Below, piece by piece: positions 2,197 through 13,386 of a stretch of 64,000 nt of DNA. A program made the translations under genes and the position numbers. Position 1 is the stretch's first letter. Each line of letters begins with the position of its first letter. The stretch comes from Patescibacteria group bacterium (lineage in GTDB: Bacteria; Patescibacteriota; Minisyncoccia; Phycocordibacterales; PALSA-1337). The DNA lies in the NCBI GenBank assembly GCA_028865095.1, contig JAGWLA010000002.1, positions 49,319-113,318 on the forward strand, given 5' to 3'. The notes beneath the pieces are model-generated. The model did not search any database. It worked only from the letters and a program-made list of their open reading frames with translations, and had not been told where the DNA came from.

Positions 2197-2252
2197 CGGC
2201 TCAGTATATGATTTTTCGCCGTTTTTTGCTAGAGTGGGGGCATCGCACCGCC

Positions 2253-3395
2253 ATGGGCAGGAAGATAACCATCACCGATACGACCGAGAAAGAGATGCTG
2301 GCTCTCCTCGAGACGAGGGCCGATTTCAAGAGCCTGCGCATGAAGCGCCTCTTGGCTTTGCCCGACCTGACCAAGAAGGAGCATTCGCCGGTCAAGATCC
2401 TCTTCGACGCCGTCATGCGCCTGCCGCGCTTCAAGGACTTCGACATCGTGGATTTCCCGCGCATCGTCACCGTGGAGCAGGATTTCGACCTCCTGAACAC
2501 GCCCAAGGACCACCCGAGCCGCCGGGAGACCGACACCTATTACGTCACCGACCGGTACGTCCTGCGCACCCAGATGACCGCCTTCTGGTCCTTCTATCTC
2601 AAGGACCCCGAAGTCCTGAAGCGCCTCGAGGCCGAAGGGCAGGTGGCCGCCCTCGCTCCCGGCATCGTCTACCGCAAGGACGAGATCGACCGGCACCACT
2701 TCCCGGCCTTCCATCAGATCGACGGCCTGCTCATATGCAAGAGATCAAAGAGAGCCATCACCCAGGACGACCTCAAAGAGGTCCAGGCCGACCTGGCCAA
2801 GGGCATATTCGGCCCTGACATCCAGTACAAGTTCCTGGATGACGACTTCCCGTACACGGTCCAGAGCCTGGAGATGGACATCATGTTCAACGGCGGCTGG
2901 ATGGAGGTGAACGGCGCCGGCCTGGTCAACCCGGTCGTCCTTCGCAACTTCGGCCTCGACCCGGAGATCTATAACGGCTGGGCCTTCGGCTTCGGCGAGC
3001 GCCTGGCCATGATCAAGATGGGCATCCCCGACATCCGCATCCTCTGGTCCGACGACCCGCGCATCACCAGCCAGTTCAAAGACATCGATTCGAAGTTCAA
3101 GGAGGTCAGCCGGTATCCGGCCATCGTCCGCGACATCTCCTTCGTGGTGGACGCGAGCATGGCCCTCAACAACTATTTCGAGATCGTCCGCGAATGCGCC
3201 GGCGACCTCATCGAGGAAGTGAAGCTGGTCGACGAGTATGAGAACGCCGCGAAGTTCGGCGCAGGGAAGAAGAGCTACACTTTCCGCATCACCTACCGCT
3301 CATTCGAGCGCACTCTGACCAACGAGGAGGTCAACGCCATCCACGAGAAGATCCGGGAGAAGACGGCGAGCGAGCTGAAGGCCGCCGTCCGCTAA
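2253..3395 (+). CDS. pheS: phenylalanine--tRNA ligase, monomeric (mitochondrial-like) architecture: PheS-type class II catalytic domain fused to a C-terminal FDX-ACB anticodon-binding domain
   Basis: PheS motif 1 (DHPSRRETDTYYV), motif 2 region (FHQIDGL) and motif 3 (GWAFGFGERLAMIKMGIPDIRILWSDD). The C-terminal 95 aa (RDISFVVDAS...KKSYTFRITYRSFERTLTNEEVNAIHEKIRE...ELKAAVR) matches the ferredoxin-fold anticodon-binding domain normally found at the C-terminus of PheT. Start chosen at MGRKITIT because the listed ORF start at 2208 would leave only 11 bp to the divergent GT2 gene. Confidence 0.7.
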   Translation: MGRKITITDTTEKEMLALLETRADFKSLRMKRLLALPDLTKKEHSPVKILFDAVMRLPRFKDFDIVDFPRIVTVEQDFDLLNTPKDHPSRRETDTYYVTDRYVLRTQMTAFWSFYLKDPEVLKRLEAEGQVAALAPGIVYRKDEIDRHHFPAFHQIDGLLICKRSKRAITQDDLKEVQADLAKGIFGPDIQYKFLDDDFPYTVQSLEMDIMFNGGWMEVNGAGLVNPVVLRNFGLDPEIYNGWAFGFGERLAMIKMGIPDIRILWSDDPRITSQFKDIDSKFKEVSRYPAIVRDISFVVDASMALNNYFEIVRECAGDLIEEVKLVDEYENAAKFGAGKKSYTFRITYRSFERTLTNEEVNAIHEKIREKTASELKAAVR

Positions 3396-10450: not shown

Positions 10451-11314
10451 ATGTACACGACACAACTTTTACCTGTCATGATTAGCAAAAAGATATTATC
10501 GAATGTCGAATCGAAGCCGTATTTCCAAAAAGGCGATTTTGTTCTTTATCATGGGGATTCTTTGAATGTTCTGGCTCAGTTGCCGGAGAATTCTATAGAT
10601 ATGATATTTGCAGATCCGCCATACAACCTTTCAAACGGGGGTTTTAGCGTCCATGCAGGCAAAATGGTTAGTGTGAACAAAGGTGACTGGGACAAGAGTA
10701 AAGGATTCAAGGATGATTATGATTTTCATTATCGCTGGCTGGAGGCTTGTAAGCGCATACTGAAGCCAAATGGAACACTTTGGGTTAGTGGAACGTATCA
10801 TTCCATATATCAATGTGGCCATGCGCTTCAGGCGCTTGGTTATCATATCCTGAATGATATTTCTTGGTTTAAGCCGAATGCTTCACCGAACCTAAGTTGC
10901 AGATTTTTCACTGCAAGCCACGAGACGATCATTTGGGCTAGGAAGGACAAGAAGGGGAAACACACTTTTAACTATGAATGGATGAAGAATAAGGAATGGC
11001 CAAGCGACTTTTTTAAGAATCCTAATAAACAGATGAGGAGTGTTTGGCATATACCAGACGTAGAGGATGTTTGGACTGTCGGTACTCCCAAAAGGGAAGA
11101 GAAAACGTTTGGAAAACATCCTACACAGAAGCCGCTGGAACTTCTCCGTAGGATCGTGCTTGCAAGCACAAATAGGGGTAATATAGTCCTTGACCCATTC
11201 ACTGGCAGTTCGACTACGGGAATAGCCTCGATCATGAATGGTCGAAAGTTTGTCGGTATAGATACTACGAAGGATTTTCTTGAGCTTTCAAAGAAGCGAT
11301 TACTAGAATTATAG
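10451..11314 (+). CDS. type II DNA methyltransferase, beta-class amino-MTase (N6-adenine or N4-cytosine)
   Basis: Motif IV DPPY (IFADPPYNLS) precedes motif I (IVLDPFTGSSTTGIA) in a beta-class permutation. The gene sits in a low-GC (about 40%) segment. Confidence 0.8.
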   Translation: MYTTQLLPVMISKKILSNVESKPYFQKGDFVLYHGDSLNVLAQLPENSIDMIFADPPYNLSNGGFSVHAGKMVSVNKGDWDKSKGFKDDYDFHYRWLEACKRILKPNGTLWVSGTYHSIYQCGHALQALGYHILNDISWFKPNASPNLSCRFFTASHETIIWARKDKKGKHTFNYEWMKNKEWPSDFFKNPNKQMRSVWHIPDVEDVWTVGTPKREEKTFGKHPTQKPLELLRRIVLASTNRGNIVLDPFTGSSTTGIASIMNGRKFVGIDTTKDFLELSKKRLLEL

Positions 11315-11321
11315 AAACAAC

Positions 11322-11843
11322 ATGATCAAAAAAGGAGTTGGAGGAGGAAATACAATAACTGGTCTTCGCTTCGAAAAGAGAGCAAGCATCTTAAAGCTTC
11401 TTAGTAGTCATGAAGGCTATAAAGTAAAAGGTCACATTATCTATTACCAAGGTAATGAAGTAGCGCAAAGTTATAGAAAAAATGGACTATATAAATACCT
11501 CGAATCAAAGGGTGTAGACTACGAAAAATATATATCCAAGAAATTACTTCCCGACGAGGCTATTTATGTGATCAGAAATAACACTCTATTTGTCATAGAG
11601 ATTAAATTCCAGAGTGTTGCAGGCTCGGTCGATGAAAAGCTTCAGACTTGTGACTTCAAGAAAAAGCAATACAAGAAGCTTGTGGCACCACTTAATATCG
11701 ATGCAGAATATATCTATATTCTGAATGATTGGTTTAGGAGACCAGAATATAAAGATGTTCTGGACTATATTATTTCGGTTGGATGCCAGTATTATTTCCA
11801 ATACTTACCATTGGAGAAGATCGGGCTACCAGTCCCAGCCTAA
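11322..11843 (+). CDS. putative type II restriction endonuclease (PD-(D/E)xK fold)
   Basis: Starts 8 nt after the methyltransferase stop, with the same low GC. Candidate PD...ExK motif (LLPDEAIYVIRNNTLFVIEIKFQ). No database check possible. Confidence 0.45.
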   Translation: MIKKGVGGGNTITGLRFEKRASILKLLSSHEGYKVKGHIIYYQGNEVAQSYRKNGLYKYLESKGVDYEKYISKKLLPDEAIYVIRNNTLFVIEIKFQSVAGSVDEKLQTCDFKKKQYKKLVAPLNIDAEYIYILNDWFRRPEYKDVLDYIISVGCQYYFQYLPLEKIGLPVPA

Positions 11844-11862
11844 AGATAATTGTAATAATTTT

Positions 11863-13386
11863 ATGGCTACAAGTTGGAAGGAATGGGAAAATAAAATAGG
11901 AAGAATCTTTAAGAATATTGGTTATACAAAGGTAGATAATATTGATAATTCAATTAATCTACAACCAAGAGAATTCTGTTTAGAGAAGCTGAATCATGAT
12001 ATGCAGGTAGATGTATTTGTCTGTGTTGATAAATCTCAGTGGGTACATATAGAGTGCCGAGATCGGAGGAATCGGACCATAAATGGGTGGCTTCACGAGA
12101 TTAAAGGACGTACTAGCCAACGTCTGACAAAACTAAAGAAAGGATTAAAAATAAAAAATATCAAGGTATTTGGTGTAGCTGCCACATCGCTAAGAGACCT
12201 TGATGGTAAGACCCAGAATGTTGCGGATGATACTGGTGTTGCGCTTTGGCATCACGGAGTAGTGGATTATTTACTTGCTATAACTAAAGGTGCTGGTGGT
12301 CAAGCAGAAGAGCTAGTCTTGAATAGGTGTGGAATTAGGAGAAGTAAGTACTTACCAATAAACATACAAGTTCAACCATGGCCAGGTATATCTGAGTCCT
12401 GGTTTATTGGATACGTATCTCCGCTTCAGATAGCTCACGCGACATTTGTTTATCAACGTGGTAATGGATTTGGAGAATCTGCATATCAGAGATTTCTAAA
12501 ACCACAACGCATTACTGAGATAGCAGACTTTGTTAGAAGTGGTAAATCATTTCCTAATTCAATAGTGATGGCCTTGCCGAAGGGGACCAAGTTGCCAGGC
12601 AGTACCGTAATTAGAGCAAATAATCTAATTACGATTTCGATTCCTGGTGATCCGGAGGGGATCAAGATAATTGATGGTCAGCATAGATTTTTTGGAGCGT
12701 TAGCTTCTGGAATGAACCCGAAGCTTTTGTGCACATTTGTTCAATCTGAAGATCTAGATCAAGCGATCATGTTCGCGAAGATTAACGGTAAACAGGTTAG
12801 TGTTAGTAAGAGCCAATTGATCTCACTATTTTCAATTCCGAATTTTGCAGCAAAGATAGCAGCAGGATACTCAGAAAGAGATCATTTGAAGATTGAACGG
12901 GAGGACACGGTATATAGGGCACTCCAAAGAATGAACCAGAAAGGATTATTTGCTCACAAATTTAATTTTATCTCAGGTAGGCCTTCCAAGGACACGATAC
13001 CGTTTAAATTTATATTTGACACTCTTATGTCACTATGGAATGTTGAGCCGTCCGGACTTGTCACTCTATCAGGGACTACGCAGGAAAAAGGAAAAGTCTT
13101 AGGGGACCGCTTAACATCCTTTTTGTCTGCTTGGGGAAAAGTACTTGGAAAGGAACGCCTTATGGATAGTCAGATATGGTTGCAGCCAACCATGCTAAGT
13201 GCACTAATTAAGACGTATCCAGACTGTAGATGGAATGCTGGGAAAAAGGATGTTGATTCTTGGCTTAAGCGGAGAGGGAAAATATCGTGGATACCTAAAC
13301 CAGAATCTTATCGCGGTGGTTCAGGGGCCTCGACTTTATCAAAGCTGCTATGTAGGAAAATAGGTATCAAGTCACAGTATATTTAG
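11863..13386 (+). CDS. DGQHR-domain (DndB/DpdB-like, ParB/Srx-fold) protein with a ~240-aa N-terminal extension
   Basis: IIDGQHRFFGA motif, preceded by FPNSIVMALPKG, which is typical of the start of the DGQHR/DndB domain. The N-terminal domain (WENKIGRIFKNIGY...DVFVCVDKSQWVHIECRD) looks like an Mrr/restriction-endonuclease-type fold. Start is 19 nt after the putative endonuclease gene, so the three genes probably form one operon. Confidence 0.55.
   Translation: MATSWKEWENKIGRIFKNIGYTKVDNIDNSINLQPREFCLEKLNHDMQVDVFVCVDKSQWVHIECRDRRNRTINGWLHEIKGRTSQRLTKLKKGLKIKNIKVFGVAATSLRDLDGKTQNVADDTGVALWHHGVVDYLLAITKGAGGQAEELVLNRCGIRRSKYLPINIQVQPWPGISESWFIGYVSPLQIAHATFVYQRGNGFGESAYQRFLKPQRITEIADFVRSGKSFPNSIVMALPKGTKLPGSTVIRANNLITISIPGDPEGIKIIDGQHRFFGALASGMNPKLLCTFVQSEDLDQAIMFAKINGKQVSVSKSQLISLFSIPNFAAKIAAGYSERDHLKIEREDTVYRALQRMNQKGLFAHKFNFISGRPSKDTIPFKFIFDTLMSLWNVEPSGLVTLSGTTQEKGKVLGDRLTSFLSAWGKVLGKERLMDSQIWLQPTMLSALIKTYPDCRWNAGKKDVDSWLKRRGKISWIPKPESYRGGSGASTLSKLLCRKIGIKSQYI

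Follow-up and report, generated by a model that had tools for sequence, protein, structure and literature searches.

A single-chain phenylalanyl-tRNA synthetase family of the Parcubacteria, probably in place of PheS and PheT

The gene at 2253-3395 of the window (the whole 64-kb stretch of DNA that was analysed) belongs to a Parcubacteria-wide family of single-chain phenylalanyl-tRNA synthetases (PheRS), a bacterial variant in which a PheS-type catalytic core and a PheT-type FDX-ACB anticodon-binding domain are carried by one polypeptide. It is probably the housekeeping PheRS of the cell, working without PheT and without editing, in a family that displaced the canonical pheS-pheT genes. The case is broader than was supposed in the initial annotation, which had singled out one gene of mitochondrial architecture. 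Bacteria are generally assumed to have the (alpha-beta)2 PheRS without exception, and its two genes serve as universal markers; a full-text literature search found no published description of a single-chain PheRS from Parcubacteria. From homology and genomic context we infer activity on Phe and tRNA-Phe, a monomeric state, a lack of editing and the absence of pheT from this genome.

The open reading frame spans 2208-3395 on the forward strand, and its start was assigned to the internal ATG at 2253 because homologues begin at the equivalent position; the best 120 homologues listed are of about 380 aa, have the N-terminus M(G)RKI.I and match with a query coverage of 96-100%. Read from 2253, the protein matches NCBI MAG protein KGI69_01605 ('Patescibacteria group bacterium') at 100% identity. 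A short G run upstream of this ATG is a possible, weak ribosome-binding site, and the alternative ATG at 2208 is without a run of this type. Neither a frameshift nor an internal stop interrupts 2253-3395, and the strings RTLTNEEVNAIHEKIRE and ELKAAVR are both found in its translation. The features of the gene are collected in Table 1.

Table 1. Features of the single-chain PheRS-like gene, with positions in the window and residues of the 380-aa protein
Feature	Positions	Strand	Residues	Basis
Possible weak ribosome-binding site, GGGGG run 12 nt 5' of ATG 2253	2236..2240	+		read from sequence
Single-chain PheRS-like CDS, 380 aa + stop	2253..3395	+		ORF list, KGI69_01605 match, two Pfam domains
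Class IIc (PheS-type) catalytic core	2373..3077	+	41-275	PF01409 tRNA-synt_2d, E 1.6e-50
Clade-specific insertion FWSFYLKDPEVLKRLEAEG (~19 residues)	2583..2639	+	~111-129	alignment
Motif 2, VYRKDEIDRHHFPAFHQIDG	2667..2726	+	139-158	alignment; invariant columns
Phe-pocket strand FPYTVQS (E. coli FPFTEPS)	2847..2867	+	199-205	alignment
Motif 3, GWAFGFG-ERLAM	2976..3011	+	242-253	alignment
Inter-domain linker, probable hinge	3021..3110	+	257-286	AlphaFold2 pLDDT <50
FDX-ACB (PheT B8-type) anticodon-binding domain	3108..3392	+	286-380	PF03147, E 3.3e-27

The two Pfam domains of Table 1 bear out the initial reading of a PheS-type core followed by a PheT-type FDX-ACB domain in one 380-aa chain. The core aligns with residues 125-327 of E. 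coli PheS at 39% identity, and the C-terminal part matches positions 692-798 only of TIGR00472 and residues 696-794 of E. coli PheT at 27% identity. Similarity to PheT is confined to this C-terminal region, the beta-subunit domains B1-B7 not being found in the protein. The N-terminal coiled-coil arm of PheS is missing, as the initial annotation had it: the 380-aa protein has no Pfam match to Phe_tRNA-synt_N (PF02912), and its alignment to E. coli and CPR PheS begins near their residue 85-100. A sequence search of the PDB returned human mitochondrial PheRS (mtPheRS; 8p8x and 3cmq) as the best matches (E about 1e-57, best 2e-57), followed by bacterial PheS chains at about 1e-39, with PheT chains matching via their last ~90 residues only. 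An AlphaFold2 model of the 380-aa protein, built from 32 family sequences (mean pLDDT 76.5), matched the closed form of human mtPheRS over its whole length (3cmq/5mgv; Foldseek E 1e-26, TM 0.65, about 400 columns) and fitted the open, tRNA-bound form 3tup more poorly (TM 0.47). The linker between the domains is probably a hinge, and the model is consistent with two rigid modules joined by it. Human mtPheRS is the closest solved relative by sequence as well as by fold, and the architecture is that of FARS2, as first proposed.

The likeness to mitochondrial PheRS (FARS2, yeast MSF1) lies in the layout: a PheS-type core and then a B8-type FDX-ACB domain in a single chain, without coiled-coil arm, B1-B7 or editing domains, and with an inter-domain hinge that is flexible in the mitochondrial enzymes and probably so here. 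The family nevertheless stands apart from the mitochondrial one. It has an insertion of its own at aa 111-129, HQxD instead of HQxE in motif 2 and a motif 3 that is one residue shorter, and it is without the insertion that follows motif 2 in the mitochondrial enzymes, so that HMMER broke the match into two stretches; the TIGR00469 (pheS_mito) match, also in two stretches, scores 241.6 bits, under the cut-off of 258.35. The catalytic domain is about 41% identical to that of the eukaryote/giant-virus clade, and FDX-ACB 35%. The description of the protein as mitochondrial-type thus holds for its class of architecture and fails for the family itself, whose members miss the mitochondrial cut-off and form a separate clade. 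Single-chain PheRS of giant viruses (Klosneuvirinae, e.g. Yasminevirus) and phage-like contigs have the same fused layout in 330-430 aa and group with eukaryotic mitochondrial sequences, apart from the Parcubacteria clade. With the canonical (alpha-beta)2 enzyme the family shares a homologous core, a C-terminal domain homologous to PheT B8 (27-29%) and, presumably, the substrates, but the canonical enzyme consists of two chains with the Phe_tRNA-synt_N arm and B1-B7, including the B3/B4 editing site, where the family has one chain devoid of all these; the bacterial PheS model TIGR00468 gives 151.8 bits against a cut-off of 237.45.

The active site was compared in an alignment of the window protein with E. 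coli PheS, canonical CPR PheS and mitochondrial, giant-virus and SrmL sequences. The motif-2 Arg is retained in VYRKDEIDRHHFPAFHQIDG. In the pocket strand, FP[FY]T..S, the aromatic pair is kept as F/Y together with the equivalent of E. coli T251, and motif 3 keeps both its Arg and the equivalent of E. coli A294 (the Ala of GWAFG); all of these are conserved across every readable family member. The T251 and A294 equivalents are at positions known to set Phe specificity from work on the E. coli and T. thermophilus enzymes. Three further traits distinguish the family. (i), motif 2 reads HQxD, where canonical and mitochondrial enzymes have HQxE: of 83 family genes, 80 have FHQID[GA] (the other three gave no regex match), Asp thus standing in place of the Glu that binds the amino group of the substrate in canonical enzymes. 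(ii), motif 3 is one residue shorter than the canonical one before E/D-R (GFG-[DE]RL) in 75 of 79 readable family genes, whereas the four most divergent members (62-66% identity) retain the canonical spacing. (iii), the insertion FWSFYLKDPEVLKRLEAEG is missing from canonical PheS and from mitochondrial and giant-virus PheRS, and its W112, Y115, L116 and L125 are invariant in the 32-sequence alignment of the family. These three traits are strongly conserved and are no argument against the predicted catalysis. The Asp of motif 2, which is also that of SrmL, and the short motif 3 were both counted against a housekeeping role.

A search of 5.8 billion proteins gave homologues in 4097 clusters at E<=1e-10, the best 120 of which are 75-87% identical, nearly all of about 380 aa, and patescibacterial in origin, with Taylorbacteria, Staskawiczbacteria and Pacebacteria among the sources. 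When one genome per GTDB species was scanned, relatives were encoded in at least 113 species; the 80 loci kept from these have 62-83% identity and are essentially all from Patescibacteria (Taylor-, Staskawicz-, Wildermuth-, Nealson-, Moran- and Ryanbacteria or Paceibacterota), a few automatic MAG labels being implausible. In the 32-sequence sample the mean column identity is 77% and the catalytic motifs are invariant. This conservation, together with the identities among the best 120 clusters, points to strong purifying selection. The neighbours of the fused gene vary (GT2, DUF389 and SPFH genes in the window; rpsB, tsf and gyrB in locus L002; tyrS and valS in Moranbacteria), and since they differ between lineages there is no conserved accessory partner. 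NCBI/PGAP labels the family 'hypothetical', because it scores below the NCBIfam cut-offs for SrmL, pheS_mito and bacterial pheS; JGI calls it 'alpha chain', and a B1-B2 remnant of PheT that accompanies some members (see below) 'beta chain'. Many CPR PheT proteins are reported to be without the B2 domain (PMC5370408).

Such a spread also bears on the reading of the gene as an artefact, be it an assembly chimera, a pheS joined to a pheT remnant by a frameshift (a concern raised with the first reading of this gene) or contamination by a eukaryotic, mitochondrial gene. Nothing was found in its favour, and we regard it, like a pseudogene, as excluded: the frame is intact and the same frame of about 380 aa recurs in thousands of independent assemblies, family members lie on bacterial contigs of 549-876 kb with rpsB, tsf, gyrB, valS and tyrS as neighbours, the family clade is separate from eukaryotes, and a catalytic domain only about 30% identical to the local canonical PheS does not come from a recent local fusion.

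A more serious alternative is that the family is an accessory, SrmL-like ligase, acylating a target other than tRNA-Phe or serving a special pathway beside a canonical PheS/PheT encoded elsewhere. The top NCBIfam model for the window protein is NF051887, the 'PheS-related mystery ligase SrmL', and the two families have in common a similar size, a two-part layout and HQxD in motif 2. That the top model is a ligase of unknown function and that the pheS_mito cut-off is missed as well was counted against the housekeeping reading, as was the position of P0245, the nearest outgroup of the family, in an SrmL-like cassette. The protein reaches 259.8 bits, however, where the SrmL cut-off is 300, and SrmL differs in its pocket strand (HPYTLNG), in GLALG where the family keeps the Phe-specificity residue of motif 3, and in a C-terminal domain that Pfam does not recognise as FDX-ACB. 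On one contig, L070, a family member with 71% identity to the window protein is found 7 kb from a true SrmL that scores 400 bits; their co-existence indicates that the family is not SrmL. The SrmL cassette of this contig (a divergent LysRS-like gene, two dCTP-deaminase-like genes and a methyltransferase) lies about 3 kb from the family gene, and the methyltransferase with the double dCTP-deaminase-like genes also flanks P0245, itself not an SrmL, in L166. This association is our own observation from the present analysis and not a curated criterion for SrmL; a methyltransferase and double dCTP-deaminase-like cassette adjoins no family gene at 82 loci, among which L070 is the only one to contain it, and does not occur in the window. 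The score, the co-existence on L070 and the lack of the cassette rule out that the window family is SrmL, and SrmL-type proteins are accessory paralogues distinct from it. An accessory role for the family itself we consider unlikely, above all because the pheS-pheT slot between tyrS and valS is taken by the fused gene in some relatives, and the canonical genes are gone there.

This evidence from gene order is the main ground for preferring the housekeeping role. We compared 82 fused-gene loci, with 1.27 Mb of flanking sequence, with 80 canonical loci covering 0.9 Mb (about 2.2 Mb in total); the canonical loci were taken from a metagenome scan with the PheS of a Moraniibacteriota contig that carries a normal pheS-pheT pair. 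That contig had itself been reached by a search with the B1-B2 protein described below. No canonical pheS or full pheT is present in the 1.27 Mb around the 82 fused genes, and no gene of the fused family in the 0.9 Mb around the 80 canonical pheST loci. The one apparent match of the fused family in a canonical locus, in L150, proved to be a duplicated C-terminal pheS fragment, 73% identical to canonical PheS and 50% to the fused family. Were pheT placed at random, the chance expectation for the fused flanks would be as low as about 1.8 genes, and the part of this mutual exclusion that does not rest on synteny is for that reason a weak argument.

In canonical CPR loci the gene order is secA-nudix-secD-secF-hyp100-(tyrS)-pheS-pheT-valS, where 44 of 46 informative loci have pheT immediately behind pheS, 21 of 34 have valS next and 14 of 52 have tyrS directly upstream. 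Ten of the 82 fused loci, of Moranbacteria type (L022, L024, L029, L031, L035, L038, L039, L041, L072 and L083), show the order secA-secD-secF-hyp100 ... tyrS-[B1-B2 fragment]-[fused gene]-valS. Their SecA proteins are 72-74% identical to those of canonical-type relatives, and the TyrRS of L029 has 79% identity, the highest value, to its counterpart in L116, a locus where the pheS-pheT pair persists. The B1-B2 gene of these ten loci encodes 130-165 aa, lies 10-30 nt upstream of the fused gene in the same orientation and matches PheT residues 1-155, the stretch that comprises B1-B2 and its tRNA_bind OB fold (TIGR00472, 176 bits; the YtpR model is passed too); B1-B2-like proteins number 1814 at E<=1e-5. 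No relic of pheS or of PheT B3-B7 was found in the ten loci, even at E<=5. With the N-terminus of the local canonical PheT the B1-B2 fragment shares 56-68% identity, whereas the two domains of the fused protein share only about 30% with local PheS and 25-33% with local PheT B8; on these grounds we reject an origin of the fused gene on the spot, out of the resident pair. It is most economical to suppose that a gene fused beforehand came from other Parcubacteria, entered the pheST locus and displaced pheST, and that the tRNA-binding head of PheT alone survived, as a separate gene. This pattern is what the functional replacement of a housekeeping PheRS would look like.

The window agrees with it as far as it reaches. 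A tblastn search with E. coli PheS and PheT, CPR PheS and a partial CPR PheT found no second pheS and, as the initial annotation had stated, no pheT in the 64 kb, although the rest of the source genome could encode a pheT or a PheRS of archaeal type; the contig listed in the record of the protein is already 126 kb long. The suggestion that a bacterium here depends on a single-chain PheRS has strong comparative support: in relatives the pheST slot is taken and the two systems do not co-occur in about 2.2 Mb, and this evidence comes from the relatives, not from the source genome.

The B1-B2 gene kept beside the fused gene in some lineages, which the initial annotation had missed, raises the question of whether the enzyme acts by itself. 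Class II synthetases are usually dimers, and the protein might work as a PheRS that needs a partner, either a second copy of itself or the B1-B2 (tRNA_bind) protein, in which case 'monomeric' would be wrong. The tight spacing of the B1-B2 gene in ten of the 82 loci and its resemblance to the canonical PheT N-terminus speak for such a partner, but most family loci, the window included, have no B1-B2 gene nearby, and human mtPheRS, which is built alike, has been published as active in monomeric form (PDB 3cmq, 3tup). We therefore regard dependence on a partner as quite improbable, and the architecture suggests that the housekeeping enzyme we favour would act as a monomer.

The origin of the fusion is less clear. 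A HMMER search of 1.84 billion representatives yielded 254 proteins at E<=1e-30, from which neighbour-joining (NJ) trees were built with our own distance code, a crude method in which the canonical subunits were sampled from E. coli and CPR only. The fused proteins fall into three clades in these trees. The first is the Parcubacteria family, which includes P0241, P0242 (an 'Oligoflexia' MAG), P0245 and P0247, P0245 being a protein of 456 aa with 42% identity to the window family; the second is SrmL; the third unites the mitochondrial PheRS of Branchiostoma and Vitrella with Yasminevirus, long metagenomic giant-virus contigs and a phage-like contig. A phylogeny of the catalytic domain, which the initial annotation had named as a check on its reading, splits canonical PheS from every fused form in all 100 bootstrap replicates and places the Parcubacteria group (the CPR family with P0245 and P0247) in a clade of its own, with 92% bootstrap, outside the eukaryotic mitochondrial clade. 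For the branching of the three fused clades the bootstraps are divided, 54 against 42 (catalytic domain, NJ). The FDX-ACB domains of the family are closer to those of the mitochondrial/giant-virus proteins (mean 35%, maximum 50% identity) than to PheT B8 (mean 29%, maximum 38%), and in 42 of 50 bootstraps the PheT domains separate as a group of their own. Trees and FDX-ACB identities are compatible with a single ancestral fusion. It is tempting to go further and to speculate that one fusion was ancestral to mtPheRS together with its giant-virus copies, to SrmL and to the Parcubacteria enzyme, that it was a bacterial invention acquired by eukaryotes, and that it left a radiation without PheRS editing; we put this forward tentatively and would not be surprised to see it fail.

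A working scheme may be suggested for the enzyme. The PheS-type class II core would form Phe-AMP and transfer Phe to A76 of tRNA-Phe, and, on the pattern of human mtPheRS, the FDX-ACB module would swing on the predicted hinge to reach the GAA anticodon and bind it. In ordinary bacteria the anticodon role belongs to domain B8 of the separate beta subunit. With no PheT there would be no B3/B4 editing site, as in mitochondrial PheRS, and the synthetic site would for this reason have to discriminate against Tyr unaided. The B1-B2 protein that Moranbacteria have kept may strengthen tRNA binding in trans.

If a large bacterial radiation replaced its PheRS by a 380-aa chain, this would be an unexpected case of synthetase displacement and of genome streamlining, and cells without cis-editing of Tyr-tRNA-Phe would raise questions of translational fidelity in ultra-small symbionts. 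There would be practical consequences as well. TIGR00468 and TIGR00472 are part of the GTDB bac120 set, and PheT B5 of the CheckM CPR marker set; completeness estimates and phylogenomic pipelines based on pheT would be systematically misled for these lineages, as annotation already is. Finally, the family offers a bacterial sister group for mitochondrial PheRS, the origin of which has long been unclear: if the fusion arose in bacteria, mtPheRS would not have been assembled in early eukaryotes.

The motif 3 of the fused phenylalanyl-tRNA synthetase (PheRS) family is one residue short, reading GFG-[DE]RL, in 75 of the 79 members that could be read at this position, and the canonical form, GFG[VIL][DE]RL, is retained in the four deepest-branching members (L073, L076, L077 and L078). 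The one-residue-shorter motif 3 is a clean synapomorphy.

A genome bin labelled Oligoflexia carries a fused-clade member that is 51% identical (locus L167). Its neighbours (MR_MLE, GCS2 and peptidase M20 genes) do not look CPR-like and, therefore, either the family may extend past the Patescibacteria or this contig may have been assigned to the wrong bin. L165, a 31.5-kb contig that resembles phage or viral DNA, encodes a mitochondrial-type PheRS-like protein alongside LAGLIDADG, RNA-ligase, HD and metallophosphatase genes; Pfam made no FDX-ACB call for the C-terminal domain of this PheRS-like protein.

PheS-related ligases are also found beside a recurrent cassette, composed of a gene for a 274-aa methyltransferase and two tandem dCTP-deaminase-like genes. 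The L070 ligase scores 400 bits as a true SrmL (the 'PheS-related mystery ligase' of NCBIfam, NF051887), and a divergent class II ligase of LysRS/EpmA type is present there too. The L166 ligase is P0245 (456 aa), the nearest outgroup of the family, and genes for an S66 peptidase and an ATP-grasp protein come after it. The two cassettes look like an uncharacterised aminoacyl-ligase pathway.

Within the window itself, the GC content falls to 0.40-0.45 between 10001 and 14000 (vs ~0.6 elsewhere). This region encodes a DNA methylase and a weakly DndB-like protein and was probably gained by horizontal transfer as a restriction or defence island.

Coordinates of the features discussed
Feature	Sequence	Position
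Shortened motif 3	window	2976-3011
N6/N4 DNA methylase, low-GC island	window	10451-11314
Weakly DndB-like protein (553 aa), low-GC island	window	11725-13386
Mitochondrial-type PheRS-like gene (338 aa)	L165	8001-9017
Fused-clade member (414 aa)	L167	8001-9245
Cassette with PheS-related ligase	L070	14368-19031
Cassette with PheS-related ligase	L166	8001-14629
pheS and partial second copy	L150	2222-8683
pheS and partial second copy	L152	10001-12170
Stand-alone B1-B2 gene	L035	9490-9987
Stand-alone B1-B2 gene	L029	9540-9977

The canonical CPR pheS-pheT loci show variants of their own. In L150 and L152, a partial second pheS copy (the last 27-74 codons only, 70-73% identical) lies 1-2 kb downstream of pheS, and the pheT of L150 begins a further 3 kb beyond that copy, which suggests an insertion or rearrangement within the pheS-pheT operon. 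The PheT proteins of L126, L127, L129, L135, L153, L158, L160 and L164 match E. coli PheT over its first ~30 residues and then from residue 155 onward, indicating that they lack the B2 OB-fold domain; CPR PheT without B2 was described by Mukai et al. 2017 (PMC5370408).

Finally, a stand-alone gene for the N-terminal part of PheT (B1-B2, tRNA_bind; 130-165 aa) separates tyrS from the fused PheRS gene in L035, L029 and eight other Moranbacteria-type loci. The database holds 1814 such stand-alone proteins (E<=1e-5). JGI labels them 'PheRS beta chain', and this label would mask real pheT loss in KEGG-style inventories.
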